Source: Giardia intestinalis (Eukaryota). From it: a DNA stretch of 64,000 nucleotides. How positions within the stretch are numbered: position 1 is the stretch's first letter; the number at the start of each line of letters is the position of its first letter. Positions 7,966 through 46,581 of this stretch are shown piece by piece. The DNA lies in the NCBI GenBank assembly GCA_000002435.2, contig CM018790.1; one strand, written 5' to 3'. The notes under the pieces were generated by a model. That model saw only the letters and a list, made by a program, of their open reading frames with translations, was not told the DNA's origin and ran no database searches. The translations under genes were made by a program, and so were the position numbers.

Positions 7966-8007
7966 TCTCAAAAAAAGTTCTGAAAGTCAAAGCACGCCAA
8001 CACGCCA

Positions 8008-21299: not shown

Positions 21300-22700
21300 A
21301 TGGGGATCTCACATAGACGGGAACGAGAGCCCTCTGCTGTCCTTCTTCTTGGGCCCGGCATATGAGGATGTGAGTCTGCTCATTAAAAAATAGAAACAAT
21401 ATTGCTGTAGTTTTGTCTCTTGGCGATGTCGAGGACCGTGGTACCAGGTGGAAAGCATCGATCTTTGCAGGTAGTTCTCATATCCCTCTCCCTTTCCATA
21501 AGTAGCTTGGCACACTCTGTTTTGTAATGATACACTGCCTTCATAAGAATGGTCTAGCCAGTGGTACTCTGGATGCCAGCTTTTTTGTCCATCAATAGCT
21601 TAACACATTCTGAGTGATTATTATGCGCTGCATACATGAGCGCAGTTTGGCCATGTCAATTTTTCATGCCACCTTCGTGCTTTATTAGCAATGTAACCAC
21701 TTCTGTGTGCCCATGCACCGCTGCTAACATCAACGCTGTCTCTTCGTATCCATTCCATCCACTTATGTCAAAATACTTCGCTGTCTTTCCCTTTCGGATA
21801 GAAATAAAACGATTCACAGCCTCCATATCCCGCATTCTACAGCCTGCATGAGCCTGGTGACGCCTTTATTATCTGTCGGATCAAGGAGCTCCACAATATC
21901 TGTGTGCTTCACTAACAAAGCAAGCATCATCGTGGTTTTACCATTGCTATTCACCCCATATTTACCAGACAAATACTCCAATGCAGTGCTCTTGGAAGCA
22001 GCGCTTGTGAGCAGAGTATATGAGAAATCCTGTATAGCTGACTCCTAAAATCCTTTCTAGAGTCATTTATCTCTCCTGATTTGAGGCTAAGGCTGTTCTC
22101 AAGAGGCTCGATCTCCGATTAGCATTGTCTAGAGCAGCCTCTAGTGCCGTGACTCAAGCCCGTAGTCTTCCTTTTAGAACACCAGATTCTTGAAGCAGCC
22201 TACCAAGCTCCCTGGCTGTTGGTCTTTGAGTGGGGTCTAGAACAAGCGCTTTCTTGAGGATACTCCTTATGAGGTCGTCTTCAACTGCACTCAGGCTGAG
22301 CCTTTGCCCATCAACGAAGACATTCCTCGGGTGCTGCTCCCAGGAGATTAGGCATTTGAAAGTGAAGAGCTCATAGGCGGTAGCACCGAAGACCCGACGT
22401 CGAACGTAGGGCCGGTCTCGTCCCTGAGGTGGATCTCGGGAGCCATGTATGCTTGGTTCCCAAAATGGCACTCCCATTGTGCAGGACATCCTTGCAGAGC
22501 CCGAAGTCCGCAAGAGCTGAGCCTGCCATTTCTGCTGACATCGACTTTGTCGGGGTCGTGAAGGTAGGTAAGGATGATGGCGATCTGCTCCATGATGGAG
22601 AGCACTGTATCGGTAGGGTTACCGGTTCTTGCTCAATCGGCAATCACATCTTGAGGCACCGATCTCAGCGGTCCATGATGATGAAGATGGAGTGAGCGTC
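21300..22700 (-). pseudogene. Decayed NEK-kinase/ankyrin-repeat gene (kinase part at 22150-22700, ankyrin part at 21300-22050), with several frameshifts and stops
   Basis: Minus-strand fragments in different frames: kinase C-lobe pieces (NQAYMAPEIHLRDE; RRVFGATAYELFTFK; NVFVDGQRL..AVEDDLIRSILKKALVLDPTQRPTARELGRLL) and ankyrin pieces (GKTTMMLALLVKHTDIVELL; GYEETALMLAAVHGHTEVVTLLIKHEGGM; GQTALMYAAHNNHSECVKLLMDKKAGIQ). In-frame stops separate the pieces. Confidence 0.55.
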
Positions 22701-23046
22701 TCTGAGCACCCGGTAGTGCCTAATGACATCTAGGTGTGAGCGTCTGGAAATGGTGGCCAGCGCGACCCAGTGGCCTCCGTGAGCTTCCCACTCTGAGTCT
22801 TGGATAGCCACCTATCACATGGACAGTACCAAAGCTGCCCACATCAAGCACCCCTCCTCGCATCGATGCAGCTCGTCGGCGGGCACAGGATATCGAGTGC
22901 ACCGTCCCCAGCCATGACGGTGTCAACGGCGCTGTGCAGAGCACGCTCGGGGGCAGGGAAGCGGCCACCCCTGCTCCCGGTTGCTGGCTGGCTGGCGAAG
23001 TACATAAGGCGCACCCGCTTGTCGGCAGCTGCACCACTAGTGACGC

Positions 23047-23053
23047 GTTTACT
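23047..23053 (-). terminator. Giardia polyadenylation signal AGTAAAC (AGTRAAY class), 13 nt past the VSP stop codon
   Basis: Minus-strand sequence after the stop reads TAG ATGTACTTAGGT AGTAAAC GCG. Seen directly; position is +/-1. Confidence 0.6.
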
Positions 23054-23065
23054 ACCTAAGTACAT

Positions 23066-24277
23066 CTACGCCTTGCCCCTGCAGATGAACCACCAGCAGA
23101 GGAAGCCCACGAGGCCCCCGACGACAACGATGACAGCGACGGAGATCCCCGCGATGGCGCCGGTAGAAAGGCCGCTCTTGTTCGTGCTACCGCCATCTTT
23201 CATGAGGTAGCAGAGAACGGGGCCTTGATTATTAGATGGGGGAGCGCAGCTCGCGCAGTTAGCGACGCCCTGAATGTTATTGCTTGTCTCTGTACACAGC
23301 TTGCATGCTTTACTGGCGTCCAAGTAACGGCCAGGTGGACAGGCGCTGCACTTATTGGGCTGATTAGCTTCGGTGCATGTCGCACAAGTGGAGTCGCATA
23401 ATGGACACATGTTCGAGACAGCTGTCAAGCCATTCGCACACGTTTGGCATTTTCCATCCCCAGTGGGCGTTGTGCAGATGCTCTTCCCGGGGAGCCTCGT
23501 CGTCTGGTAGCACCCGCCCTCCTGGATGAAGTATCCGGCGGCGCAGACCGTGCAGGCACCGTTAGCGGCAGTGGTGCAGAACCGAGTCCTGGCCGCATTG
23601 CTTGTGCAGACGCCATTGAGCGGCACGTTGTTCCCCTTGCACTTCGAGCAGTACTTGGTACCTCCAATTGTTAGGCCGCACGTCTCGCACTCCGGGCCCT
23701 CCACGCATTGCTCCACGCACGTGCCGTCTGTAGGATTGCTCTCGTCGGCGTACCTCAGCATCTTCCCGGCGGGACAGGCCGTGCACTTGGAAGCGCCGGC
23801 CCCGCTGCACTCCGCACAGGAGGGGTCGCAGGGCGCGCACGTTTGTCCGGATAGATACGTTCCGACAGGGCAGGCATCTAAGCATGCCTTCTTCGTCGGG
23901 GTCAGATGCTTTCCTGGTTCACATTCTTCGCAAGTCTGCTTGTCCGGGGAGCACGTCTGGCAGTTCACGATCGGGCAGTCGGCCTGCGGCGTGCACTGCG
24001 TCCCGTCGTCGTTGGGGTCGAAGCCAGGGCTACACGTCTCGCACCTTGTGTTGTCGCCAGAGACGCACTGGGCGCAGTTCTGGACTCCGCAGTCGGACGC
24101 GGGGTTCTTGGTGCACTTCTTCGTGGTGGGGTTGAGGGTGTAGCCTGAGCCGCACGTCTTGCACTGCTGGGGGTTGCTTTCCTCGCAGACATCACAGCCC
24201 TCGACCTCGCACGGCGCGGTCTTTTCGTTGTGCTTTGCCAGCACGGTTGCACAAACTAGGAGAAATCCTACCAACAT
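23066..24277 (-). CDS. Variant-specific surface protein (VSP)
   Basis: The ORF track extends to 24334 but begins with GTG. The first ATG (codon 20, at 24277) gives the signal peptide MLVGFLLVCATVLA. About 12% Cys with many CXXC motifs (CDVCEE, CAQC, CQTC, CAEC, CETC, CATC), a GGC/TM region and the invariant tail ...GLVGFLCWWFICRGKA*. Confidence 0.9.
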   Translation of the reverse strand: MLVGFLLVCATVLAKHNEKTAPCEVEGCDVCEESNPQQCKTCGSGYTLNPTTKKCTKNPASDCGVQNCAQCVSGDNTRCETCSPGFDPNDDGTQCTPQADCPIVNCQTCSPDKQTCEECEPGKHLTPTKKACLDACPVGTYLSGQTCAPCDPSCAECSGAGASKCTACPAGKMLRYADESNPTDGTCVEQCVEGPECETCGLTIGGTKYCSKCKGNNVPLNGVCTSNAARTRFCTTAANGACTVCAAGYFIQEGGCYQTTRLPGKSICTTPTGDGKCQTCANGLTAVSNMCPLCDSTCATCTEANQPNKCSACPPGRYLDASKACKLCTETSNNIQGVANCASCAPPSNNQGPVLCYLMKDGGSTNKSGLSTGAIAGISVAVIVVVGGLVGFLCWWFICRGKA

Positions 24278-24862
24278 TAGCCGGAGTTCGTATGCCACTG
24301 CTCTTCTGTCAGGCCGGTGCGTTGCCGCGAGCACTGAGAGACAGCCGCTCTTGCTCTCTTGATCGGTTGGACTGGAGAGGGATAAGATAATAGCACACCC
24401 ACCGGAGGCCGGCTGATGGCACGGTTCCCCCTGGCTTCGATAGGAACAGGACCAGTGAGGAGTAGACTCAGACCGTGCCTCTCTTGTGGAATGATTGATT
24501 GGGGTGCACTCTTGTACATTGCTGTCACTGTATCACTGGGCCCACCTGCAGGTGCGCTCAGAGGCCTCACGGGTAAGCTGCGCCCACTTCTCGACCGTCC
24601 GGAGACGATGGCTGGTTGTGGATAACATACTAAAAGCTCCTCTCCATCGATGCATCCAGAGCTCAGTGTCGTCCCGGTCGGCATACTCTGTCGGGGCACT
24701 CCGCGTCGGCCTCCAGGGTTCGGCCTGCTCAGGGCCATACGAGCCGCTAATGTGCCCTCCTTGGCCTGCCATCAGCAGCTCGCACTAGGCGCCTTACTCA
24801 GGCAGTAGCCAAGGCCACTCCAAAGGGTGGCTCCGGATTGCAGTTAAAATCAGCGGCGGCTG

Positions 24863-27030
24863 TTGACTCCACTCCCTATCCCAGCTGCCGCAGAGGGTGT
24901 CCTGGGAGACGCTAGTAACAGTGCAGTTAGCGGCTTTGCAGGGCCGATGGGCGTTTGGGGAGCGTGCTCAGAAGGGGCCTTCAGTGTTATCTACTCTCTC
25001 AGGGGATGCCCCCACCTCATTGTGAAGGAGATCCGGCTCGACGGTCTGGGTCAGCACGGTGTGGATGCTAAAGCGTGGGCTGACCGCTCTTTTTATCCTC
25101 TTTCACCCGGGGGTCCTCAAGTACCATCAAGTGATTGAAGACGAGGGCCTTATCTATGTCGTCACGGACCGGCACAGCAGGACTCTTGACAACTTCCTCA
25201 CCGAGCACAAGCGAAGGAAGATCCCCGTGTCTGCCGGCGTGATCCTCTCCGTCATGAAGCAGGTCGCCGCCGCCCTCGCCTACCTTCACAGCGTCAGTGG
25301 GGCAAACACTAAAGGCCTCGTCCACTGTGACCTCAGGCCTGCCAGCATTCTTATCAGCGCAGACGGAGAGCGCTTCATCATCGCCGACTTCGGCCTCTGC
25401 AAGGACGCCCTGTGGAGTGAGAGCACTCTCATAGGAATAATGGCGTACATGGCCCCCGAGGCGCTCCTCCGTAATGAGGCCAGCCCCGCCTCCGACGTAT
25501 GGAGCCTCGGGGTCATCATTTATGAACTAGTAACTCTGAGGAGACCGGACTTCTTGGGGGGCAAGGAGCCGGCAGAGGTCTTCGTCGACGGGTGGAGGCC
25601 GGACCTGAGCGGTGTCGCTGATGGCTTCATAAAGAGTGTTCTGGAGAGGATATTCGTGCTGGAGCCAGAGAGGAGGCCGACGGCCAGGGAGCTGCACGAG
25701 ACGTTCGCTACATTCGACATCCCAGTTGGTGAGCTGAGGGCTCAATACGCGGTGCTGAAGTACGAATGCGGCTCCTTGGAGGCTGCGCTGAATGGCGCTA
25801 ACGCCAGGATCGCGCTGCTGGAAGAGGATGTTAAGACTAAATCCACTAAGATCGACGCACTCGAAGACCAAGGTAAGGAACATCTAGCCATGATTAAGGC
25901 ACTGGAGAGTAGGCTTGCACAGTTCAGTGACAGGATGAACACGGCTGACCCTCAGTCCAGCCTCCTTTTGCTGCCCAGGCTGATGCGTGCCGCGCATACG
26001 AACGGCATGGAGACCGTCCGGATGCTGCTTGAAGAAAGACTCGGTGTTGGTCAGCGCGACGCACAGGGGCACGTTGATCCCGTCGAGTTGTTTGTTGGGG
26101 AGGAGAGGGGCCTCCAGGACAAGAACGGCTGGACTACCTGATGATCGCCACAGAGGAGGGCTATGCAAGAACTGCCTCCCTTCTGGTCCCATATGAGAAG
26201 GACTGGATCGACAGCGAAGGCAAGACGGCCTTGGTGATTGCGGCAGAGGCAGGACATGAAACTGTGGTGGAGGCCATCGACCCAACCGATGAGAACGGCG
26301 TCACGGCGCTCATGCGGGCTGTTAATAGAAATGATGTGGGGGCTGTAAAAGCACTCTTACCCATCCAGAGGGGGAGGAAAACATACAAAGAGGTCACAAT
26401 AAGCGGATGGTACATGGGCAAAGGAACAGCTCTGATGGTGGCTGCGGCAAGTGGACACGCAGAACTAGTAGAACTGCTAGCAGAGCACGAAAAGGGGAGA
26501 AAGTAGGCGGTTGGGCCGCTCCCGTATTCGCGGCACTGTGCAATCGTTCCAATGACCCCCTGGTGGACTATATTGGGCACGTTGAGCTTTTGATGGAGTA
26601 TGAGAGCAGTATCTCAGGGTGGACGGAGCTCATGTATGCAGCAGCACGAGGGCACGAAGGAATCGTAGAGCTGCTCAAGCAGGAGACTGGCATAAGGAAC
26701 AACGAGCATCAGACTGCCCTCATGTGGGCAGCACGCAATGATCATCCAGAGTGCGTCAGGCTCCTACTGAAGGACGAAGGCGGCATGCAAACGACCAAGG
26801 GCTGGACCGCTCTTATAAACGCAGCATATAGCAACGCCGTGGAATGTGCAAGACTTCTTAAGGAAAACGAGAAGGAGCTGAAGACAATTTCTAGCTGCCA
26901 TGATCACTCGCCCGGTACCACTGTCCTCAGTATCGCTAAGAAGAAGGATCGCAAAGAGATAGTAGGCATCCTCCCAAACGAGATCTGCTCTTCTTTATCG
27001 AGGTCGGCTTGCCAGCTCCTGTCCGAGTAA
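24863..27030 (+). pseudogene. NEK kinase with C-terminal ankyrin repeats, disrupted by at least 3 frameshifts (reading frames 2, 0, 2, 1)
   Basis: Four consecutive plus ORFs together rebuild one NEK/ankyrin protein: 24863..25138 (GAFSVIYSL..HLIVKEIRLDGL, kinase subdomains I-II), 25059..26141 (HPGVLKYHQVIEDEGLIYVVTD..HCDLRPASILI..IADFGLCK..MAYMAPE..DVWSLGVIIYELVT.., ending ..KNGWTT*), 26141..26506 (TALVIAAEAGHETVV..GVTALMRAVNRNDVGAVKAL..GTALMVAAASGHAELVELL) and 26407..27030 (WTELMYAAARGHEGIVELL..HQTALMWAARNDHPECVRLL..GWTALINAAYSNAVECARLL). At 26141 the sequence tggactacctgatgatcgcc reads W T T stop stop. The paralog pattern GWTALMIAA predicts a 1-nt loss near there. Confidence 0.65.
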
Positions 27031-27049
27031 ACCCGTCCAGGATCCGAAG

Positions 27050-29950
27050 CTTAGATGCCGCCCACTCTGGAGAAGAGCCTTGTGCATCCCGCCTGGAAGC
27101 CGTTGGGTGCTCCACTATGCATTCCGGAGCGTCTCTCCTCTCTGACTGGCTTGGGTCAACCATCGTCTGACATCTAGTGAGCACCCGCTGTCTCGGGCCT
27201 TGCGTCAGTCGTGGCGATCCAGTCTCGAGAGCAGTTAACTCTGGCCATGTACTCTGGAGTAGCTTTGTGGCCCTGGTGCTCTACGACGAGGATCGCACGC
27301 CACGACCCCGGGTGTCGACTCCCGTTCCTCGGGGTGCCTCTTCATCTTCTCGTGGAGGGCACCATCTGTTCCATTATCAAGGATGCGCTCCCCGTGTGCC
27401 TCTATCCTGGAGTCATAGTACGCATTCGTGGATGCCGATGGAGTACTCTTATACGTTGTGTCGGGGGAGAGGCCCACCCCTCTGCTCATGGATCGCAGTG
27501 CGCTCTTGCAGGTGGTCCGTCACCCAGCACGAGACCGTGTCGACGCTCACCCTGTGCAGTGCGTCTGGCTCAGTGACCTGTGGGCTGGTCCATCTGCACT
27601 GCACAACACACTTGGGGGGAATGATTCGGTCTGTCGAGGCGTCGTCCAAAGCATCACGAGCGATCAAGACCGGTTCGCCGTTAGGCCGTCTTTCTCTACA
27701 CCGGCACCCGTCTACTCGAGGGTGTCAGGTACTGCCAGCTGCTGTAGTAGACACCCAGCAGGTGGCCCAGACCACTACTCCTCGGTGCGGACAGGATCAG
27801 TCCGCCTCTGCCAACCAGACACCCCAGGAGCCCCATCTCTTGTCGAGGGACTCACATAGGCCACGTGTGGGTCCATCTCGACCAGCGGGGCGAGTGATTA
27901 GTGCCATCACTGGCTTCAGGTTCTCTGCTGCCTTGAGGGGTCCTTCGAGACCAGCCAGGAAGAAGGCCTCCTGCTCCTCTGTGCTCCTACACCCAGTGCT
28001 GACCGTCGAGCCATGCTGCTTCCCAGGCCTGTCGCCTCTGTGACTATCCTCGCCGCGTCACTGTTGTCGGCATGGGCACTGAGTGGGGTATCTCCTCAGC
28101 TCCCGATGAGCAGGTTCTGTCCCGCGCAGTGTGAAGGCATACTCAGGGCCCCGAGGGACCGAATCCAGGGGTGCAGCGTGTCGCAGCTGAAGGAAGGCCT
28201 CGACGCAGCTCCTCGGGACTACCTTGTGGAGCGAATCATGATCGTCCATTGATTGTGGTCGCCCTGTCTCATTCTTGAGGAAGGACCAGGCGGAACCGTA
28301 CAGAGCACGCATCCCATCCTATGGATCGCGCTGAGGATCTCGTTGAAGGCCTGCACCCGGATGGACTCGCCAGCGCAGACCCGGGGACTTCGAGCCCCGT
28401 GGACTGGCCGTCCGTGCTCTCCGATGGCTGAGGGGCTCGTGTCCCTCAGGGGCCAGGCCGTCCTGATCCGGCCCCTCTGGATAGCAAGGTTCTGGTCGTC
28501 GGTGGCGCTGTCAGGGTGCAGCTCCCCCTCGAGGCGAGGCAGAGGCTGCAGGCCGGGCAGTGGGGTGGTGACTGTTGCTCCTCTGCTTCCCCGCTGTGTG
28601 GGGAGGCACGTCTCCTCGGCTCTCGACTGGAGCTCTGCGGGGTGTTAGGTACCCTCCCCTGAGCACGTTCGCACGACGGGCGCTGAGGGGGATTTCCTTC
28701 TCTATCCCCGCTGCCCCACTCAGCAGCGCCCTGCATCCGGTGTCTGTGCTGCATGCGTCTGGACGGCCTCACCGCGGAGGGTTTTCGCGCAGGACAGGCA
28801 CGTGCTCTTCCGTTCCTACTAGTTCAACGTTCGCCTGGTGCCACTACAGCGTAGGGCGCCCCTCTCCATCAGGTTCCTAAGATCCTCGTTCTCGCTGTGA
28901 TACCTGATCTCTCCCCCGTGAGGGGTGGGGTCCACGGTGCACTGGTGTGTGTCCGGGACGATGCCCCCTCATGGAGCTCTGCAGGTTCCAGGACCCTCTG
29001 GGGACAGCCAGCAACTGGGACCCCTGCTGTGAGCTAGGTTGAACTAGCTCCACCGGGCCACGAGCAGCTTCATGGCACTCTGGTGTTGCTGGTCTCTCAA
29101 CCGCACATGCTTGGCCTGTCCTAGCAGATAGTGGGGTCGTGCCTGAGTACTTTCGAGGAGTCTGGGAAGCGCTCCGGTCCGATGCTTTCTATCCAGAGCA
29201 TCGCGACGGGCAACGGTGAGGGCCCGCGTGGGACACCGCACTTGGGCACCAAGGCTCGGTGTGCGTGAGCTGGCACCGTCTGTCGGTCGAAAAGCTGCAG
29301 AAGGAGCAGCAAGAGGAGCCCAAAGCGGGAGAGGGTTCTCCAGACGTGCTGCTCGAGACCCTTTAGAAGTCGAAAGAGACATGGCAGGAGACGCAGAAGT
29401 GGTCGAGTGGCTCTTCGTGCTGTGGATCGCGTAGGAGGTCCCCGAGGGCGCAGTCTCTTAGTGAACCTGGCGTTCTTGAGCCAGTTCATGTAGTCAGCGA
29501 GTGACCCCTTCAGGGCTAGGTGGTCTCCTAGAGAAACGGTCATTGAGGGCCTGCCACCATGCGCCGCTCTCCATGATAGGGAGATTCAGCGGAGAGAGGT
29601 GTGGGGCCCCTTACTCATTCTATCGGATGCTTTCCAGACTCCATTCTTCGAGCCCCTGAGAACCTTCCTCGGCAGCTCGCTCGTGGGAGCGGTTGCCGGT
29701 CTGCTGCTTGCTGAGGGCTGGGCGTCGGGGCTATCAGCTTTCCGTTTGGGCTTCTTCTCCCGCCGGAACTGGATGGCACTAGATTCCTGGACCCTAGGTT
29801 CGAATGTCGAACAGATGAGTGAGAGAAGACCTGCCTGGTGTGGCGACTCGCACGGAATTTGCTCGGACAGATTGTCTAGAGGTTCCCCAATGGAGTTAAA
29901 TATCTCATAGATTGATGATTTTAGAGACAACAAAGGTGGCAAATTTCAGA
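27050..29950. other. GC-rich interval of about 2.9 kb (hand counts roughly 62-72% GC) without a convincing single coding frame; nature unknown
   Basis: Overlapping 60-290 aa ORFs occur in all six frames, as expected when AT-rich stop codons are depleted. None shows a family motif. Counts I made by hand: 43/60 GC at 28381-28440 and 37/60 at 27481-27540. I found no rRNA signature sequences. Confidence 0.3.
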
Positions 29951-30023
29951 GATGAGTGGATTACGCCGGGTGGTTTACTCAAGCTGCAGCTACCAAGATT
30001 CTAGTTAAAGCTCCTACCTTAAG

Positions 30024-36667: not shown

Positions 36668-39600
36668 ATGAGCGAAACGCTCCTGACTATCAACACGGTC
36701 CTATCGTCAGGCGCTGTGATAGCTTCGTTCAGAGGGCGGTATTCTGCTGGTGCATCTACTGACGAGCTGCTAATCGTCAGGTCCAACTGTTTTCAAATCT
36801 ATGGAGTAGAGTGTACAAAGTCCGCAGATGCAGCAGGGACCCCCATGGAGGTGTTCCGGCCACTACTAACGGTAGACCTAATCGTTTCTATCGATAGAGC
36901 ATGCCACATTCCAGCGATTTCCTTTGCGAATCAAACGTTTTCACAGGATTTACTTCTCCTTGTCTCTAGCACTTTGCACATCAGCTTATATGGATTTTAT
37001 GGTAATAGTCAGGCGCTTAATTACGTGGAGCTGTTAAATCTCAACCTCGCATTCTATCTGGCCACAGAAGGCCGCATCCCCCTCCCCATACCTAAGAAAT
37101 ACACCATGTCACTGGCGGCTGTTTCGGTGGTACCGACTATGAGTGCTTTAATTTGCTTTTCATACAGAGATTCCCCAACCATCGCGGGCCAGCTAGTGTT
37201 CATTTACTTATTCAACAGCGCCCTCGGGAGCAATTCGTCGTTGAAAAAGAACGCCCACAAGGCAGATGAGCATATCCACGCAAGCATCATTCTCCCAAAT
37301 AAGAACACGGAGACAAGCCAGGTCATAGATGTGAAGCAAGTATGCTTTCTAGAGTCACCTCCTCTTTACGAGCGCTCGGGGGAAACTATGCTCCCAGTCT
37401 TATGTGTCAATGGAAACAGCGACATCTGCTCATTTGAGATATGCCGTGAGTCATTTTTCTCCAGCCCGCAACTACATGGAATTGAATCGCGTATTAATCT
37501 GATAAAACAGGGAATTAAGCTCATGGATGGTCCGTTTTACATGCGTGACCTACCGTTTGGGTCGGTTTTGTGTCCTGTACACTTTTATATAGAGTCACCG
37601 GATGCACTAATGATGTACTTTCCTCTTGCAGTGGCTACCTGCGATTCGTTCAGCCTTGTTCTCAAAATGCGTGACTCCTACAGCATATCGTTTAGAACTG
37701 CAAATCAGCAGACTTTTAAGTCCCTTCATCCACAGGCAGTACCTCTAAATGTCACACAGATAGAAAACAGCCACATTTTTCTGATAGCTTTTGATGATGG
37801 CAACCTTTGCTATGTCTATCTTGACGTTGGACAGCTGTTCATGGTTGCAACTGACAAGAATGAGGAAGACATCAGCAGCACACTGACCACCACGGAGACC
37901 ATATACAGTAACGGTGTAGTAACGCATGCATTGCGTGCCAGGATTTTCACCACAGGCGTGTTTACGTGGCCTAACTACGGGAAGGAGGGCAAGATGTTCC
38001 GGCTCCCTTCATCTATTCATCTGGCATGTATACGGAAACGCCGCTACGGCTTGGTCAGGTCTCGCGGCAGCTCAGGTAAAGCAACATTAAGCCTACTGGA
38101 GGATGCTGCCTTTGCTACTGCGGCGGCACAGCAAGACCAGGGCACGTCTCCAGGATACTTCCAATCGGAGGAGAGCATTAGGCAGGATATGGCATCCGAC
38201 GAGGTCCTCATTTTCCTTGGGAGTCAGACACTCGACAGTACAATTACACGAGTGCAGCTATCAAATCTGTGCAAGGCCCATAACCTTAATGTCGAATGTG
38301 GAAAGGCCGGAAAGCAGCTGTTTGAAACACCCAAGCACGAATCTCTCTACCAGCTAGATCTCATCAACCAGCAGCTGATTCAGGGCGTCGGAGCCGTCCA
38401 AGATTTGTCTCATATCGAGAGCGGGCTTATTTTGACTGCTAGCTCACATGGACGAGACGGCAATCTTGCCTTGATGGAAAAGGGGATGCTCATTAGAAAC
38501 ATGGGAGACGCGAAGTTGCCGAATATGAGCATCGCCAATCTCTTCTTCTACCACTGTCCAGTTGACGCGCAATACTACATCGTTCTGGTTTCAAAGGCAG
38601 GTGATATCTCCATTTATCAAATAAAGCTTGCCAGCAGTTGCATGCACGGAAACCTCCAGAGGCAGAGCCAGCACAAAACTCGAAAACTATCGCAGCTCTC
38701 CGTCACATCGACCAAATCCATTCTAGGGCTTCTTCAAACAACCACTGGCTCCAGCCTACCAAGAGATATAGAGAACCATAGCCTAGTGGACTTTGTTCAC
38801 GTGCCAGATTCGCGAACAATATCTTCTCTGGCTGAAATTGATTTTGAAACCATCAGACAGAAGCACCCCGACTTCGGGATTTTGCTGTCGATGAGTACGC
38901 TCTCTATAGATACGAATAGGCGCATTACTATACGCTTATATAGAGGCGGCGTTTGCGTGGATAATTCAATTCTTTACAAGTTTAGCTCCACAGTCCTCAG
39001 CGGCAGGATCTACAAGGAGTACATTGTCGCTAGCGGTGCAGACAAGAGCATGTTCATAATGAGGGTCAGAACAGATACGCAACCATCCACTGCTCTTGTG
39101 ATGCTCAACAAGTACACGGACGTTCACGTCGCCACGGTGTCCATGGACACCTTAGATGCATCCAGGAACGTATATGCAGCCTTCTTTGGCATGCAGAACA
39201 AAACCATTTTGATATACGCTTTCGATAATTGTAACATGGAAGTTACATCTCTTAGTCCCATTAAAGTGCCGATAGTGCCGTTTAGCGTCTTGCTACTTTT
39301 GTCTGACACACTGGGAAAGGCTCACGAATCGCCAAACGTTGACGTGCTAGAAGGAAAGCTGGTGTTTTCTGGACTAGATGGGTATATCGGCATAATACCC
39401 TTTGAGGTCAGCCAAAAGAAATCCAAGCGAGCCTATACATACACATTAAGCACCTCCAAAATCAATTCAACCACGATCCTGAAGAGTCGTGAGGGGAAAA
39501 TCCCCCTTCAGCTCTATCATGTAATGGACTCGTCCAGTTCTTTTATGGTCCGCGGCTCGCACCTCTTCTACGCCACAATTAGGAAAGAGATTGACCTTAC

Positions 39601-42073
39601 AATTACCAAGCCAAAAGGCACAGATGACGTCAGCTGGCGTATCAACGTCATTCGCATGGTTACAAGGCCCTTGAGAACTATGGTGATGGTTGTTCCGCTC
39701 CCCGTAGAACTGCAAAGGCTGATCTTCAACCATATTGAATGCAATCTGATAACTCCGTACCAATGTTGCATCGAAGCATGCGACGAAATGACGCGTGCTT
39801 CTGTCTATGGCATGACGACCCGCACAGCCAACCGATGCACGGATCTGCAAGCGCAAACTCTAAATACCCTCTTCCTTGTGCTCCTGAATGGACAGCTAGA
39901 GATGAACTCACGCTTCAACACGATACACACGCCGCTGGGGGCATCTGCGGAAGTGCTCCATGGAGACGGACAATGGGGCGAAGGAATAGCCGTCAATCCC
40001 ACGTTCGGATACCACACCGTCCATCGCACATGCCATAAGTCGAGCAAAATCGCTAGCTCAGAGGCGTCTGAAGACCACAAGACTGAGCACAGCGACATAG
40101 GAAAGCAAACGTCAGATGCAGATACGAATGCCACCACTGCTCTTCCATGGTCACGGTATGTGGCCATTCTTCTGCCAACAACAGAGATGCAGATGTCAAT
40201 TATCAGATACTTGCTGCGCAGAACACCTTTACAGATAGAACATGATGCCATCTTGGATCAGAGAAACCACTTCGCGCTGCACACAGAGCAATATCTGAGC
40301 AAATCGCAGTTACGATTCATTAATAGATCGAACTTTACCGTAACCAACAAGATAATCCTTGGAACGGGGCTGATCTGTGTGACGTTCAAGACATTCTCAC
40401 TGAACGGAACAATATACTTAGTGGCTAGTTTGTTTGCAGGAATAGATATTAGCCTTCTACAGGCGGACATAAGCCCGGAAATAGGGGCTGGTGCAGAAAA
40501 GGACATTTCCTCTAATATAATTCGTGAGAAGACAACCATCAATGTCAACGCAATAGAGTCCGACATAACGAGCATAGATACACCCACACTACCGACGCAC
40601 GATCACACCATGCTGAGCTCATTTCCAGGTCCCGACCCCGTAGATGCAGAGGTGATAAGTAACAACAAGATCAGGCCACAAGGCATGTTTCCAAGGCTAG
40701 TATTCTGGGTGGTCCATGAGAACATGCATTATCAATGCGTTGGAATTCTTCCTCTCCCAAGTATCTGTAATTCCATCATAATAGATAAGAACTCAAGTAC
40801 AGAGTTCTGCACAACGCTGGTCTGTGTCGTTGGTAACAGTTTGACACGCTACTTTGTCCATGCCACTCCCGAGCTTCCTGTCGAATCCGCCAGGTCCGTT
40901 AGTCTTTCCACTAAAGACCAAAATCCCATGAAAAGCATGCCTCTAATTACTCTAGAAAATGCTGCAACATATGCCAGCGAACAAGCGAGCAATGTGGACG
41001 TCGATACTCTGTCGTCTGCATATCCCGAACTACTCAACACTGAAAAGCAGTCTCTCTTTTTCAGAATTCCTAGTCAGTTGATGGGGCGGCATGAGGGTAA
41101 AGATGGTGGCGAAGAAGAGGTTGCTACGTGTCTCTCGGGGGCGCAGGAGCAGTTATTAGGGTATGAATTCAGGGCAAGATCCATGAAGCATGATCACGAT
41201 CCCATCTCCACTATCTCAGCAGATGACGTTAACATGATTTTCACTGTACCACGGTCAAAGTATGAGCTAAACGTTACAACGGCAAACTCCGTCCCCCTTG
41301 TGGATAAATTTGATGCTTCGACGATAGTAATGCTCGATAACGATGACAGAACGGCCTCCGTTGCATGTGTTATCAATAGCGGAATTATATCTCTGTACGA
41401 TTTTAAGCTGAATTTGCTGTATTATGACGAAAAGGGCATATGTGCAGATGTGAAAATAGTGTGCGGAATTTCGTCCTCAATTGCAGGGGCGCGCTTTAAG
41501 TCCCCCAATTGTTTCACGTTTATTGCTATAACTCGTGAAAACATGGTGCATTTTGTAGTAGCCAACTTAGAGGACGCATTTTCGCAGGTGCGCAGCATGG
41601 ATTCAATAGCCGTGCTATCCCACGATACTGAGCTGAAGATCAACAACATAGAATCCAACGCCTCTGCTGTATTATCCACTCCGGAAAAGACGTCAAGAGT
41701 GACCATACTTGCCTCCTATCCGTCAAGGCATAACATCACATGTGTCCACAGCTATATGAACGACTTAGTGCACATGGGGACAGACTCAGGTGCAGTTGTC
41801 TCCATCAAGGCAAATGCTACGCAGCTCCTGGCTGCATTGCAGAATAAAATGATTTCGGTGATAGCAGAGAAGTTCAATCTATCGGGAACTGCTTTCGATC
41901 CTGGGCATCTTAAGAAGCTCTCCAACCGAGCAAAGGAGTGCAAGATTATAGACGCGGATTTTCTGAGCCAGTTTTTAACGTTGAACACTGAGCTCCAGGG
42001 AACGATAGCGCGGAGCCTTAATATGACTGTGGAAGACATTGAGGAAGCCCTTACGGAGATCTATTATCTCTAG
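36668..42073 (+). CDS. CPSF_A / DDB1 / SF3b130-family triple beta-propeller protein (1801 aa), possibly the CPSF160 homolog
   Basis: The N-terminal pattern (LLTINTVLSSGAVIASFRG...ELLIVRSNCFQIYGV) resembles the first blade of DDB1/CPSF160. The C-terminus IIDADFLSQFLTLNTELQGTIARSLNMTVEDIEEALTEIYYL matches the family's (I/V)DGDL(I/L)EQF...helical tail. Large low-similarity insertions account for the size. Confidence 0.6.
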   Translation: MSETLLTINTVLSSGAVIASFRGRYSAGASTDELLIVRSNCFQIYGVECTKSADAAGTPMEVFRPLLTVDLIVSIDRACHIPAISFANQTFSQDLLLLVSSTLHISLYGFYGNSQALNYVELLNLNLAFYLATEGRIPLPIPKKYTMSLAAVSVVPTMSALICFSYRDSPTIAGQLVFIYLFNSALGSNSSLKKNAHKADEHIHASIILPNKNTETSQVIDVKQVCFLESPPLYERSGETMLPVLCVNGNSDICSFEICRESFFSSPQLHGIESRINLIKQGIKLMDGPFYMRDLPFGSVLCPVHFYIESPDALMMYFPLAVATCDSFSLVLKMRDSYSISFRTANQQTFKSLHPQAVPLNVTQIENSHIFLIAFDDGNLCYVYLDVGQLFMVATDKNEEDISSTLTTTETIYSNGVVTHALRARIFTTGVFTWPNYGKEGKMFRLPSSIHLACIRKRRYGLVRSRGSSGKATLSLLEDAAFATAAAQQDQGTSPGYFQSEESIRQDMASDEVLIFLGSQTLDSTITRVQLSNLCKAHNLNVECGKAGKQLFETPKHESLYQLDLINQQLIQGVGAVQDLSHIESGLILTASSHGRDGNLALMEKGMLIRNMGDAKLPNMSIANLFFYHCPVDAQYYIVLVSKAGDISIYQIKLASSCMHGNLQRQSQHKTRKLSQLSVTSTKSILGLLQTTTGSSLPRDIENHSLVDFVHVPDSRTISSLAEIDFETIRQKHPDFGILLSMSTLSIDTNRRITIRLYRGGVCVDNSILYKFSSTVLSGRIYKEYIVASGADKSMFIMRVRTDTQPSTALVMLNKYTDVHVATVSMDTLDASRNVYAAFFGMQNKTILIYAFDNCNMEVTSLSPIKVPIVPFSVLLLLSDTLGKAHESPNVDVLEGKLVFSGLDGYIGIIPFEVSQKKSKRAYTYTLSTSKINSTTILKSREGKIPLQLYHVMDSSSSFMVRGSHLFYATIRKEIDLTITKPKGTDDVSWRINVIRMVTRPLRTMVMVVPLPVELQRLIFNHIECNLITPYQCCIEACDEMTRASVYGMTTRTANRCTDLQAQTLNTLFLVLLNGQLEMNSRFNTIHTPLGASAEVLHGDGQWGEGIAVNPTFGYHTVHRTCHKSSKIASSEASEDHKTEHSDIGKQTSDADTNATTALPWSRYVAILLPTTEMQMSIIRYLLRRTPLQIEHDAILDQRNHFALHTEQYLSKSQLRFINRSNFTVTNKIILGTGLICVTFKTFSLNGTIYLVASLFAGIDISLLQADISPEIGAGAEKDISSNIIREKTTINVNAIESDITSIDTPTLPTHDHTMLSSFPGPDPVDAEVISNNKIRPQGMFPRLVFWVVHENMHYQCVGILPLPSICNSIIIDKNSSTEFCTTLVCVVGNSLTRYFVHATPELPVESARSVSLSTKDQNPMKSMPLITLENAATYASEQASNVDVDTLSSAYPELLNTEKQSLFFRIPSQLMGRHEGKDGGEEEVATCLSGAQEQLLGYEFRARSMKHDHDPISTISADDVNMIFTVPRSKYELNVTTANSVPLVDKFDASTIVMLDNDDRTASVACVINSGIISLYDFKLNLLYYDEKGICADVKIVCGISSSIAGARFKSPNCFTFIAITRENMVHFVVANLEDAFSQVRSMDSIAVLSHDTELKINNIESNASAVLSTPEKTSRVTILASYPSRHNITCVHSYMNDLVHMGTDSGAVVSIKANATQLLAALQNKMISVIAEKFNLSGTAFDPGHLKKLSNRAKECKIIDADFLSQFLTLNTELQGTIARSLNMTVEDIEEALTEIYYL

Positions 42074-42081
42074 ATCTGTTT

Positions 42082-42765
42082 ATGGATTACTGGCGCGTCT
42101 TTCCCTGGTTTTTGAGTTTTTATATGGAAAGACGACTGGAAGCGTTGGAGACAAAGATATCGGCCTTGGCACGGTTTGTGGGGGTTCCTGACGATTATGA
42201 CGTGCTGCACATTCTCGCAATAGCATATAAATGCGGCTTCACCCGGCCACTGGCTGTACGGACACCTGAAGACTACTATAACCAAGAGCTCAGCGCGCGT
42301 CCGACCATGCTTGGTTATTGTCGAAGTACAGCGAATCTATGCAAGAGTATAGTGTTAGAGAACACCAAGGCTCCACGGAACGCAGCCGATCCCCTGTTTT
42401 CTCGCTATTACCTTATAGTAGTTCAGTACATCCGTAAGTTCTCGAGCTCGAAGTTTCATAGTGCTATGCGTCGTCTTGCTAAGGAAAGCACCGATACGTA
42501 TCTAAAGTCACTGACAAAGAATGACTATACTTGGAGATTTTGTGAGGAAGACGAGGCTGTTGCTCTTACCGGCGCGCCCCACAATGGCATGGGGCCAATA
42601 GGTACATCTATGAACATTCCGCTTGTCCTAGATGCAAACATTCTGCAGACGGTAGATAACATGTGGGTTGGCGGAATGCATCCCCTTGTCAAGTTACGTG
42701 TCTGCTGCGCAGAGTTCAAGAATCTATTGATGCCCTTAGTGCTTGACTGTACAGATAGTCTTTGA
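42082..42765 (+). CDS. Hypothetical protein (227 aa)
   Basis: The ATG lies only 8 nt after the upstream stop. An alternative start is Met15 (MERRLEALETK) at about 42124, which has an AT-rich context. No recognised family. Confidence 0.45.
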   Translation: MDYWRVFPWFLSFYMERRLEALETKISALARFVGVPDDYDVLHILAIAYKCGFTRPLAVRTPEDYYNQELSARPTMLGYCRSTANLCKSIVLENTKAPRNAADPLFSRYYLIVVQYIRKFSSSKFHSAMRRLAKESTDTYLKSLTKNDYTWRFCEEDEAVALTGAPHNGMGPIGTSMNIPLVLDANILQTVDNMWVGGMHPLVKLRVCCAEFKNLLMPLVLDCTDSL

Positions 42766-42786: not shown

Positions 42787-45042
42787 ATGGACATCTCCCT
42801 TGATTACGAACTAAAAACAGGTTTTGCGGTTGAAACCGTAATGCGCACTCTACAATATCCAGAAGAGCGGATAAATTGGCTTGAGGAGCACAAAGCCATC
42901 AATAGTGAGTTGGGAGATGAGCTTCGCGCATTCGCAGCGGTTATCGGATTGGATGGACCAGCGCAAATGTACGGTTTTACGAACGACGCCCGCGTTCGTA
43001 GCGCGTCCATAACAAGCCCAATCCGCAGTGCATACGCAGAAATGCGGGAAAACAGTGGCAAAATTAAGGAGATAGTTTGCGAGAATAATGCAAAACGGCC
43101 ATCAAGTCCAAGCTTGGTAGTGACAGACCCATTGACAAATGCTCTTCAGATCGCGCTTGCACAAGCAAAAGTCAGAAGCGACCACGAAGTCTCCAAGTAC
43201 TCGCGGAGAATCCAGGCTCTTGATACAATGAGCGAAAACGTTATTGGAGCGACAATGCTTCCATTGTCCGTCGTTCCCGATGTTCTGATCGATGGCACAA
43301 TGTATACCGTTCCGATTAGTACAGAAGAGCCGTCCGTCGTGGCGGCCTTGGCCCACGCCGCTAAGATTTTCCGTATAGGTAAGGGAGTACGGACACTTGG
43401 GCCAATCAATCCATTCATCCTCGGCCAGCTTATTTTCATGCTGATCGATGGGCAGTGGAAGCACCCAATGAATCTGTCCGAACTCGAAAGCCTCCTATCA
43501 CGATCGCTGGCAACACACCTTCCCAATTCACGTAACTACGGCAAGGGAATCGTCTCTTGCTACCTACGAAAGCTCAATGACTACATATTATTAGAGATAG
43601 GGCTTGATCCCGGAGAAGCTATGGGTGCAAACATGATTAATGGATTCATGGAGGCAATAGCACCAGATGTAGAGCGCTATCTCACGAAGTTTGGTCATGT
43701 GGAGCGGTTGACATCCATTCTTTCTAACTCTGGAGCTGGACGGGAGTACGAAGCAATCGCAAAGATAACTGTGGAAGATTACGCCATGGCGAAGAATATC
43801 CCCATGAAGAAGGCCGAAGACATCCTGCGACGTATAGAGGCCCTCAGCCAGCTTGCAGAGATGGACACCAATAGAAGGATAACTCATAATAAGGGGGTGC
43901 TGAACGGTATCATTGGGGTTGCCCTCGCATGTGGACAAGACACACGTGCCATTGATGTTGCGAACTGCCAGCTCGGCCACACGAAGCCCTTGGTCACCCA
44001 CAGGTTCAACAGCAAGGAGTTGTTTCTTCGACTTACCGCAAGAATCTCGGCACCGGTCGGGGTCATAGGAGGATCATCCAAATTATTCTGGGGACTCTCC
44101 ATTCTTGGCCAGGCTCAGGAGAATCGAATTAGTAGCGGCTCCCTGGGTCGCATTTTGGCTGCCGTCGGGCTTCTGCAAAACTTTGCTGCTTTACAAGCTC
44201 TAGTGACAAATGGGATACAACACGGCCATATGAAGCTTCATAATAGGAAACTAGTGACACGAGAAACGCCAACGCCGGCATCAGCATCAAGCTCTATTTC
44301 AGCCTCATTGCAGGCCGTTAGCATAGAACCTAAAACTACTCCACCCAAGGTGACCACTCCATTCATGGACAGTCAAGATAGAGATAAAAACAAATTGAAT
44401 ACAGCGCTGAATGAGTCCCTCAAGAGGATAGAGGACATTATTTCTCACATCAACTACACGCCAGAAGAGCCTAACTACGAAGCCAAGATGATGTTAACTA
44501 ATGGGGAATCAGATCTGTACAGGTACTTTTCTCCCGCTAAGCTGAGCCCTGTGAGGAACCTCCAGCAACCGTCATTGCGAATGCAAAGTCCGAAACGGCA
44601 ATCGTATGCATTAGAAAAGTTAGCCTCCCAGACACTGTTAGATAGGGTGCGCACCCGGTCCCCAATCCTTTCTCAATCTATCAGCTCTGACAGCCCATTT
44701 GGCGCCGCTAGCACTCATCAACCTACAGTTCTCTCAACACTAGCAAAAGGATTAGGTCAGTCTGCGTCCACTTATAACGGTGGCCAATCTGCAGACTTGT
44801 TCGGTTCAGGACACGGTAAGCCGGCGTCTTCATCTACACTCACCAGGCAGATGTCCTACAGCCCAAACAGACTCAATAGCTTTAGTGTAGTCAGTGACCG
44901 CACAACGTCGCCGGTAAAGAGCCTGGAGATGGAGCACTGGGAAGGGAACTCCGGGGCGAGAAATGAACTTAGCACCAGCAAGAGGCCCTACAATATAGTC
45001 TCTCCGAGTAATTTAAAGCATAATTCTTGGAGAAACTCTTAG
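42787..45042 (+). CDS. HMGR: HMG-CoA reductase of class II (bacterial/archaeal type) with a ~290-aa Ser/Pro-rich C-terminal extension
   Basis: Residues 1-460 align with Pseudomonas mevalonii class II HMGR from the recalled sequence: [20 protein letters not shown] vs [32 protein letters not shown] vs [40 protein letters not shown] vs [42 protein letters not shown] vs [44 protein letters not shown] vs [33 protein letters not shown] (catalytic His). Class I signatures (TTEGCLVAS, DAMGMNM) are absent, as is an N-terminal membrane domain. Confidence 0.85.
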   Translation: [751 protein letters not shown]

Positions 45043-45642: not shown

Positions 45643-46581
45643 ATGAGCGCATGCAAGAAGTCTGGGAAGCCCCGCTGTTCGGCCATCAAAGAGCAATCTG
45701 CCCCGCGATCTAAGATACGGTCCAAATCATCGTCTAAGCTGCCAGCTAAGCCGGCGAGAGATACGATTAAGAAGTCGCCAAAAGCAAAAGCGCTCTCGGT
45801 GGCGCAGCCCACAGGTCGGAAGTGGACTCTGCAGGAGGAAATACGTCTCTTAGCACTCTTCATCGCGGTTGGACCCGATTGGTTCAAAATTTCTGAGCAC
45901 CTTGACAATCGTCAACCAAGCACGATAAAGTGCAAGTTAAACAATATGCTCAGGTATGCGTTGATGGGGGCGAGTGATCGTATCGATGACGTGGGAAGAT
46001 TCACAAAGCATATAGCAAACGAAATTAAGTCCAAAAACTACACCCTTCTTCAGTACCATTCGCAGCACCTTTCCAAGCTACCCTTAGAAAAAATAGAGCC
46101 CTTTCTTCGTAGAGAGCTCAATATCATATTGCCTCAGTTAGAGTCGCAGGCAAAAAGAGAGCATGTTGATAGTTGTATACTAACAAATAAGAGCGAACAG
46201 AAGACTACGTATCTTCAACCTTTACCTTTTTCAGCGCCGCAGCAGCTCCAGCCGATGCTGGTAAGTGACTATAGCGATGCTCCAACGCCCCAGCCTCCCT
46301 ACTCTTCCTGGTTTAATAACGTATTCCCATATCCTTCTTCTTGCTCCGATTCTCTTGTGCAGTGGAAGCCTCTTCCCTGCGATTCAAGAGGCTCGTGTCA
46401 GCTCTCCCTATCAGAGAGCTCATTCAGGCTCTTCCCACCGGGCCTGGAGGCACCACCTCTACTTCATCCGATAGCCTCATCCAGCAATGCCCACAGCACG
46501 CCAGTGTCTGCCTTGCCCTCACTAGATCCCCCCTATAATAACGAAATCTGCGGGTACTCACTTAGGGTCCCGATTAATTAA
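45643..46581 (+). CDS. Myb/SANT-domain DNA-binding protein
   Basis: One SANT/Myb repeat: RKWTLQEEIRLLALFIAVGPDWFKISEHLDNRQPSTIKCKLNNMLRYA (W..E..L, G.DW..I, R....C). Basic Lys/Ser-rich N-terminus and a Pro/Ser-rich C-terminus typical of transcription factors. Confidence 0.65.
   Translation: MSACKKSGKPRCSAIKEQSAPRSKIRSKSSSKLPAKPARDTIKKSPKAKALSVAQPTGRKWTLQEEIRLLALFIAVGPDWFKISEHLDNRQPSTIKCKLNNMLRYALMGASDRIDDVGRFTKHIANEIKSKNYTLLQYHSQHLSKLPLEKIEPFLRRELNIILPQLESQAKREHVDSCILTNKSEQKTTYLQPLPFSAPQQLQPMLVSDYSDAPTPQPPYSSWFNNVFPYPSSCSDSLVQWKPLPCDSRGSCQLSLSESSFRLFPPGLEAPPLLHPIASSSNAHSTPVSALPSLDPPYNNEICGYSLRVPIN

Follow-up and report, generated by a model that had tools for sequence, protein, structure and literature searches.

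A class II HMG-CoA reductase with an internal insertion and a C-terminal tail in Giardia intestinalis

The gene and its start codon

The 64-kb window analyzed here, a stretch of Giardia intestinalis contig CM018790.1, carries an uninterrupted open reading frame (ORF) of 751 codons at positions 42787..45042 on the plus strand. Its 751-residue product is identical to RefSeq entry XP_001708651.1, the HMG-CoA reductase (HMGR) of Giardia lamblia ATCC 50803. Both the name and the sequence of the gene are public, so that the object as such is already known. In our reading, which we give a probability of roughly 0.85, the locus is a single-exon HMGR gene of G. intestinalis assemblage A (WB) that encodes a soluble class II enzyme, to which an insertion and a C-terminal tail were added later.

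The first-pass annotation of this DNA, made from the letters alone, took the gene to span 42787 to 45042. A frame of 751 residues is indeed present, but conservation places the true start at M19. The coding sequence accordingly covers 42841..45042 (plus strand), from the conserved M19 codon to the TAG stop, and specifies 733 residues. The start at M19 (nt 42841) is common to all orthologs, to Giardia muris and to the current RefSeq version.2 of XP_001708651, which is likewise 733 residues long. Moreover, the N-terminal pattern MR(T/S)xxxxxxRLxWL/FL begins at the M19 position in all orthologs, in G. muris and in P0151, a relative from an environmental contig that is described below. The 18-codon upstream extension of the ORF (42787..42840, plus strand) is not conserved; in assemblage E its ATG at 42787 lies out of frame, and in assemblage B and a fourth Giardia lineage stop codons break it up. 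As judged from these comparisons, 42787..42840 is probably 5′ flank or promoter and not coding. Approximately 20-33 nt upstream of M19, at 42808..42821 on the plus strand, there is an A-rich element, GAACTAAAAACAGG, which is similar in all four Giardia lineages and represents a candidate initiator or promoter. In what follows, residues are numbered according to the 751-residue ORF unless M19 numbering is indicated.

Class II identity of the enzyme

Class II HMGRs are homodimers in which HMG-CoA is reduced to mevalonate by two successive NAD(P)H-dependent reactions; closure of a C-terminal flap positions the catalytic His. In the Giardia protein, the class II catalytic domain comprises residues 132-485 (43180..44241, plus strand) and matches Pfam PF00368 with 200.6 bits (cut-off 27, E 5e-59) over profile positions 17-367 of 368. 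With the NCBIfam models, the class II profile TIGR00532 gives 187.5 bits, compared with 24.6 and 30.3 bits for the class I profiles TIGR00533 and TIGR00920. The cut-offs of the two class I models are 441.8 and 778.35 bits, respectively, and both match only ~60-75 residues around the ENVIG sequence. The same division is seen in searches of the PDB. Eleven matches fall below E 1e-3 and all are class II enzymes (Streptococcus pneumoniae, Enterococcus faecalis, Borrelia burgdorferi, Pseudomonas mevalonii, Delftia, Burkholderia, Elizabethkingia and entry 9v7y). When the catalytic domain alone is compared with the PDB using phmmer, class II chains reach 109-149 bits, while human, plant and other class I chains reach 19-21 bits.

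The structural data point in the same direction. An AlphaFold2 (AF2) model has predicted local distance difference test (pLDDT) values of 85-97 through the catalytic core, and a Foldseek search with this model places class II structures first (E ~1e-30, 30% identity, template modeling score to the target 0.7-0.8), with human class I at E ~4e-19 and 16% identity. The assignment of the Giardia HMGR to class II, and not class I, is therefore solid on the basis of profile, PDB sequence and fold scores. The first-pass annotation had proposed class II and had named grouping inside class I as the outcome that would contradict it; profile, PDB and fold scores all favor class II.

The residues expected for catalysis are present, each in its class II motif context, and the complete Glu/Lys/Asp/His set is invariant across an alignment of 42 sequences. 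The catalytic Glu resides in EEPSVVAA (residues 180-187; 43324..43347, plus strand), which is invariant in this alignment, as is THNKG with the catalytic Lys (residues 366-370; 43882..43896, plus strand). In GQDTRA (residues 383-388; 43933..43950, plus strand), which carries the catalytic Asp, the D and R are invariant, and in the DAMGAN-type motif EAMGANMIN (residues 277-285; 43615..43641, plus strand) it is MGAN that does not vary. The catalytic His, His481, is found in a motif at residues 476-485 (44212..44241, plus strand) in which G, H and L are invariant. This motif contains GHMKLH (residues 480-485) and belongs to the first flap helix, predicted by AF2 at residues 459-474 in M19 numbering. 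The equivalents in P. mevalonii we take to be Glu83, Lys267, Asp283 and His381. All four motifs lie at the residues given to them earlier.

Two further elements belong to the conserved part of the protein. The N-terminal helices (residues 19-52; 42841..42942, plus strand) are homologous in alignments to the prokaryotic class II N-terminus with its ERLxxL sequence, and AF2 predicts helices at positions 7-16 and 22-34 (M19 numbering) with a pLDDT of ~78 for residues 11-30. The dimerization element starting with ENVIG (residues 150-159; 43234..43263, plus strand) fits the consensus ENVxGx3(I/L/V)P by which this class II element is defined (PMC10070635). Concerning membrane association, no anchor was detected: the highest 19-residue Kyte-Doolittle window scores 1.69 at residue 456, inside the catalytic domain. 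The earlier statement that an N-terminal membrane anchor is missing is in keeping with this, as there is no hydrophobic segment outside the catalytic core.

A comparison with solved structures places these features in context. With the bacterial class II enzymes of S. pneumoniae (5WPJ/3QAE), E. faecalis (7M1Z), P. mevalonii (1QAX) and B. burgdorferi (9ZW6), the Giardia enzyme has in common the fold, the ENVxGx3LP element, the Glu/Lys/Asp/His motifs and solubility. It differs from them in that identity is ~30%, that ~76-90 residues are inserted before ENVIG, that flap helices 2 and 3 are missing with a 266-residue disordered tail in their place, and that the cofactor helix reads LPNSRNY, which is neither Dx(V/L)xxxL nor (H/Y)xSxxxR. 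The class I enzymes (human 1DQ8 and Arabidopsis 7ULI) catalyze the same reaction, have a distant superfamily fold in common with the Giardia enzyme and also have a one-helix flap bearing the catalytic His. However, they are set apart by the N-terminal membrane or sterol-sensing domain, which the Giardia enzyme does not have, and by the low identity and bit scores (16% and 19-21 bits).

Several observations weigh against the reading given above, one of which concerns the trees and is taken up with the origin of the enzyme. The TIGR00532 score of 187.5 bits is below the equivalog cut-off of this model, 259.95 bits. The Giardia HMGR is consequently not filed as a TIGR00532 equivalog, and the "degradative" label of the model should not be applied to it. 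Scores under the cut-off are also obtained for G. muris (178.6 bits), P0151 (185), Carpediemonas (226), Dysnectes (254) and P0235 (236), which derives from a bacterial metagenome-assembled genome (MAG). In addition, a three-helix C-terminal flap characterizes the crystallized bacterial class II enzymes (PMC10070635), and this flap is not kept; in the AF2 model, Giardia retains only the first, His-bearing helix, which is followed by disorder. Finally, cofactor use cannot be read from the sequence because LPNSRNY fits neither published consensus.

The short flap appears to be a subtype difference and not a reason for exclusion from class II, because 45 of 250 sampled class II-type sequences, including those of G. 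muris, Carpediemonas and a Myxococcales-like MAG, end fewer than 25 residues past the His motif. The prokaryotic median is 44 residues, corresponding to flap helices 2 and 3, while G. muris has 18, P0151 nine and Carpediemonas five. We considered whether the short flap is a shared derived trait of fornicates. This idea was rejected, as such a flap also occurs in many class II sequences from prokaryotes and is not seen in Dysnectes.

The cofactor-helix segment LPNSRNY (residues 245-251; 43519..43539, plus strand) aligns with YPSIVKR of S. pneumoniae. Cofactor-helix motifs of the "undefined" B. burgdorferi type are also known. Among class II enzymes, Dx(V/L)xxxL is associated with NADH and (H/Y)xSxxxR with NADPH (Miller and Kung, via PMC13488460), and the residues in question in P. 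mevalonii are Asp146, Leu148 and Leu152 (PMC10070635). The Giardia segment fits neither consensus and has no Asp at position 1. The corresponding segment in Dysnectes, HPSMHAR, is a full NADPH motif, and IPSMLTR in G. muris keeps the Ser and the Arg; the Asp that disfavors NADPH is absent from the Giardia, G. muris and Dysnectes segments. These alignments suggest an NADPH-type lineage in which the motif of G. intestinalis may have drifted to a divergent form.

Given this catalytic machinery, the Giardia enzyme would be expected to reduce HMG-CoA to mevalonate with two NAD(P)H. The reaction would run in the biosynthetic direction, feeding the synthesis of dolichol and polyprenols as well as protein prenylation. 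HMGR would then constitute the committed step of the mevalonate pathway kept by Giardia. Metabolic reconstructions have reported the pathway in Giardia and retortamonads, and its loss in Spironucleus and other Hexamitinae (PMC3916229, PMC7762791).

The insertion and the C-terminal tail

The G. intestinalis complex has 130 residues before ENVIG, compared with 41 in G. muris and P0151 and a prokaryotic median of 50. The extra material is an insertion and not an N-terminal extension, because the first ~34 residues align with ordinary N-terminal helices. It is ~76-90 residues in size, is located between the N-terminal helix and ENVIG, is specific to the G. intestinalis complex and contains the sequence KRPSSPS; in the ORF it corresponds approximately to residues 53-128 (42943..43170, plus strand, boundaries approximate). 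The insertion is 88-97% identical among the four Giardia lineages. The ratio of nonsynonymous to synonymous substitution rates (dN/dS) is 0.023-0.06 for the insertion and 0.038-0.047 for the catalytic domain, i.e., as low or lower in the insertion. AF2 assigns it pLDDT values below 50, with only four near-identical sequences as input. The earlier account of the added regions was incomplete in that this better conserved insertion was overlooked.

The C-terminal tail comprises 266 residues (486-751; 44242..45039, plus strand), is rich in S, T and P, is basic and is predicted to be disordered. It is fused directly behind the first flap helix with the catalytic His. Since this His is residue 481, the tail has to start at ~486-492 and be ~260-266 residues long. 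The bounds of 460-751, or ~290 residues, assigned in the first-pass annotation therefore begin too early. The description of the tail as rich in S, P and basic residues holds (17.3% S, 7.9% T, 7.5% P, 12% K+R, net charge +10), but it is not Q-rich, with Q at 4.5%. Apart from short predicted helices, the tail has pLDDT values below 50 in the AF2 model.

Identity of the tail to the three other Giardia lineages is 85, 64 and 53%, and it is punctuated by long invariant islands that include SPVKxLExxHWEG and KRPYNIxSP. The dN/dS values of 0.145-0.166 indicate purifying selection that is weaker than for the insertion. Seven of the 13 S/T-P sites are invariant (T558, S582, S587, S601, S625, S708 and S739), and several basic-x-x-Ser sites are kept.

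In other organisms no counterpart of the tail was seen. The enzymes of G. muris, Carpediemonas and Dysnectes, as well as P0151, all lack it. A profile search with the tail returned a Giardia fragment as its only match, yet it missed the full-length Giardia proteins, which makes this a weak negative. No tail homolog was found among the best 150 matches of the exhaustive search described below, where a weak tail-only match would not show. The word-index homology search missed G. muris, which is second in the exhaustive search, and its negatives are weak for divergent or low-complexity queries. Within these searches, the claim that the tail has no counterpart in prokaryotic enzymes stands. The absence of the tail from G. 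muris implies a later origin inside the G. intestinalis complex, separate from any acquisition of the enzyme.

That the tail does not belong to the functional protein, but is an annotation artifact, a read-through product or a fused second gene, might be suggested by the lack of homologs outside Giardia, the low-complexity composition and the low AF2 confidence. This explanation is highly improbable. Four lineages whose synonymous sites are saturated or nearly so (proportion of synonymous differences 0.63-0.84) all keep an open frame of comparable length, with no internal stop or restart, and the dN/dS values and long invariant islands given above also speak against it.

Origin of the enzyme and its possible regulation

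The first-pass annotation regarded class II enzymes as otherwise bacterial or archaeal. This does not hold, as G. muris, Carpediemonas, Dysnectes and three environmental eukaryote contigs carry class II HMGRs. In an exhaustive search of 1.84 billion cluster representatives with a profile of four Giardia sequences, from which the best 150 matches were listed, the G. intestinalis complex was followed by P0149 (347 bits) and P0151 (239 bits), with prokaryotes all at or below 185 bits among these 150. The matches span the catalytic-domain positions of the profile, except for two Giardia fragments. P0149 is the 389-residue G. muris protein TNJ29788.1. P0151 (gene 10001-11287 of contig L002, SRR31929897) is found on a compact 57-kb contig next to genes for eIF2A, ribosomal protein S8e, prefoldin and WD40 proteins, which identifies the contig as eukaryotic; its host is probably another diplomonad relative. 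Eukaryote-type neighbors on compact contigs are also seen for P0181 (contig L005, gene 346-1641), which is located beside a DHHC palmitoyltransferase gene, and for P0249 (contig L007, gene 1361-2578), beside a glycosylphosphatidylinositol (GPI) mannosyltransferase gene. By distance, the sequences closest to Giardia include those of two free-living fornicates, Dysnectes brevis (EukProt) and Carpediemonas membranifera (KAG9391082.1). As a group, the eukaryotic relatives score 142-254 bits with TIGR00532 versus 18-65 bits with the class I models.

The nearest relative outside the G. intestinalis complex is the G. muris HMGR, with 47-48% identity over the catalytic domain and with the N-terminus MRxxxxxERLxWL and the short flap in common. 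It differs in having neither the insertion (41 versus 130 residues before ENVIG) nor the tail (18 residues past the His motif). The Carpediemonas and Dysnectes enzymes, at ~36-37% identity, also come from eukaryotes and fall into class II by their TIGR00532 scores (226 and 254 bits), and they too are without insertion and tail. Dysnectes keeps a full-length flap together with HxSxxxR, and Giardia does not.

Class II-type sequences were analyzed by neighbor-joining (NJ) with Kimura distances and 200 bootstraps, in one set of 150 sequences and 353 columns and another of 267 sequences. With 150 sequences, the G. intestinalis complex is recovered in 100% of the replicates, its grouping with G. muris in 99% and the addition of P0151 in 74.5%; with 267 sequences, Giardia, P0151 and P0249 group together in 76%. 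P0181 pairs with Carpediemonas with weak support (21/200). The point against the reading that was deferred above is that a clade of all ten eukaryotic class II sequences appears in only 2/200 replicates (1%), or in 25/200 (12%) when P0259 is added. With respect to a donor, the signals differ: a single-sequence search favors Streptococcus, while the fornicate profile favors archaeal MAGs among the named matches. In the NJ point tree, the nearest prokaryotic sequences are Myxococcales-like or proteobacterial MAG sequences, with weak support and with long-branch attraction likely.

From this distribution it follows that class II HMGR was present before G. muris and G. intestinalis diverged, and it is probably old within Fornicata. 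Any transfer was probably old and not specific to G. intestinalis, because G. muris, Carpediemonas, Dysnectes and the three environmental contigs carry class II. Lateral acquisition, as proposed in the first-pass annotation, is the most economical explanation and would date at least to the Giardia ancestor and possibly to the base of Fornicata; it is not organism-specific, however, and the tail, being absent from G. muris, was not part of it. In this scenario the class I enzyme typical of eukaryotes would probably have given way to the prokaryotic form at an early time in the lineage.

Other histories have to be weighed against lateral acquisition in an ancestor. The top single-sequence matches beyond Giardia are from Streptococcus, Leptotrichia and Staphylococcus, at 33-39% identity, and could be taken to suggest that Giardia alone received the gene recently from a Gram-positive inhabitant of the gut, for example Streptococcus. 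We consider this very improbable, given that no close donor is seen (identity to every prokaryote is ~30-39%), that P0151 and the species named above also have class II, that the named best matches of the fornicate profile are mostly archaeal MAGs and that the NJ-nearest prokaryotes are Myxococcales-like MAGs and not Firmicutes. Vertical inheritance, with a class II enzyme that the ancestor of eukaryotes owed to its archaeal host or to an early partner and that only the fornicate lineage kept, would account for the archaeal origin of most of the best named fornicate-profile matches (Hadarchaeales, Bathyarchaeia, Thermoplasmatota and Thaumarchaeota). It would also agree with a 2024 survey in which Asgard, bacterial and eukaryotic sequences are intermingled in HMGR2 trees (PMC11052028). 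Yet no specific Asgard affinity is seen, class II would have had to be lost many times over, or class I retained in parallel, across all other eukaryotes, and the HMGR literature assigns eukaryotes to class I (PMC13488460, PMC10070635). Vertical inheritance is hence improbable, if slightly less so than a recent transfer. Several independent transfers from prokaryotes into different fornicate lineages deserve more weight, and although we regard them as unlikely they are a real possibility. The very low NJ bootstrap for monophyly of all eukaryotic sequences, and the unstable grouping of Carpediemonas and Dysnectes with Giardia, would fit such transfers. On the other hand, the fornicate sequences are mutual near neighbors by distance and form one 13-tip NJ neighborhood, and low bootstrap values are expected even with a single origin because the branches are long and the distance method is simple.

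A prokaryotic-type catalytic domain might also reflect bacterial contamination of the assembly. The gene is, however, flanked on both sides by Giardia or eukaryotic genes, 22-600 bp away, in one contiguous 64-kb window, and its GC content is like that of the neighboring DNA. Moreover, the gene order 1800-aa ORF / 213-aa ORF / HMGR / Myb / RNA polymerase subunit / PP2C is kept in independent assemblies of three other Giardia lineages: assemblage E (P15), assemblage B and the fourth, more divergent lineage. Because of this shared order, contamination is excluded for all practical purposes.

The window as a whole has ~48% GC and long intronless ORFs spaced 10-100 bp, typical of a Giardia chromosome. 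Genes around HMGR include those for a variant-specific surface protein, protein kinases, PI3-kinase, PP2C, Myb and a class I (Trp/Tyr) tRNA synthetase. Directly upstream, at 36668-42073 (plus strand), is an ORF of 1801 residues with no Pfam match at E ≤ 0.001, whose position and size (~1800 residues) are kept in the other Giardia lineages. It is followed 9 bp past its stop by a 227-residue ORF (42082-42765, plus strand) that ends 21 bp before the ATG at 42787 and 75 bp before the conserved HMGR start. This ORF has a weak YbaK/tRNA_edit-like match (23.8 bits, under the cut-off of 25.5), and its start may be over-extended because the orthologs are called as 213 residues. Downstream, a Myb-domain protein (45643-46581, plus strand; PF00249, 28.4 bits) adjoins HMGR in all four Giardia lineages. 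Elsewhere in the window, the region 22000-30000 has a GC content of 0.57-0.61 versus ~0.48 outside it. Inside this high-GC block are a variant-specific surface protein gene (PF03302, E 1.5e-119) at 23066-24334 on the minus strand and a protein kinase ORF at 25059-26141 (plus strand).

Two kinds of class II HMGR gene arrangement were seen in the metagenomic material. The Myxococcales-like or proteobacterial MAG sequences that are nearest to the fornicates in the NJ point tree lie on contigs L009 (gene 8001-9167), L006 and L010-L012; they have a short flap, and their genes are part of an operon-like order CDP-diglyceride synthase / HMGR / mevalonate kinase. Large multi-domain fusions that start with class II HMGR are represented by P0167, P0192, P0205, P0233, P0260, P0262, P0265 and P0276. 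The fusion partners are GHMP (mevalonate) kinase with or without NUDIX, polyprenyl synthase together with squalene/phytoene synthase, squalene synthase together with NAD-epimerase, and a squalene-hopene cyclase-like domain.

What the insertion and the tail might do can be approached by comparison with class I. Class I HMGRs are regulated through added non-catalytic regions and by phosphorylation near the C-terminus. In the Giardia enzyme, the composition and conserved sites of the tail suggest a phospho-regulatory or docking module. Through phosphorylation or docking, insertion and tail together may regulate the activity, the stability and turnover, or the location of the enzyme. They could also gate flap closure, because both are positioned next to the mobile flap. 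Giardia encodes cyclin-dependent kinases, ERK1/7, GSK, three AMPK-family kinases, PKA, Akt and one 14-3-3 protein (PMC3218828). A model is conceivable in which proline-directed and basophilic kinases would phosphorylate the two added regions and thereby adjust flap closure, stability or localization, possibly with the only 14-3-3 protein of Giardia as the reader of these marks. A Giardia post-translational modification dataset (PMC5913674 supplements) contained no entry for HMGR. Such regulation would be a convergent, independent route to the control that class I gets from its membrane domain and C-terminal phosphosite. The joint proposition, that insertion and tail form a newly evolved eukaryotic control module and that class II HMGR is an ancestral Fornicata trait that replaced class I once, is put forward tentatively, and taken as a whole it is doubtful.

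As far as could be checked, there is no earlier description of the insertion or the tail, of the lack of both in G. muris, or of the short flap. In the open-access literature we found no statement that the Giardia HMGR is class II; earlier publication is still possible, older key work being outside this coverage, and no priority is claimed for the class II status of the enzyme.

The class of the enzyme bears on its use as a drug target. Statins inhibit class I HMGRs ~10^4-fold better than class II (PMC10070635), and a 2026 study motivates the use of atorvastatin against Giardia by inhibition of HMGR, with the class of the enzyme unmentioned (PMC13268923). As a class II enzyme, the Giardia HMGR is expected to be a poor statin target, and class II-selective inhibitors might spare the human enzyme. 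Furthermore, class II is called "exclusive to bacteria and archaea" in recent HMGR literature (PMC13488460); Giardia spp., Carpediemonas, Dysnectes and their environmental relatives are counter-examples. Finally, the insertion and the tail are lineage-specific, under purifying selection and absent from G. muris, and they would thereby offer a natural experiment in which a transferred prokaryotic enzyme gains eukaryotic regulatory appendages.

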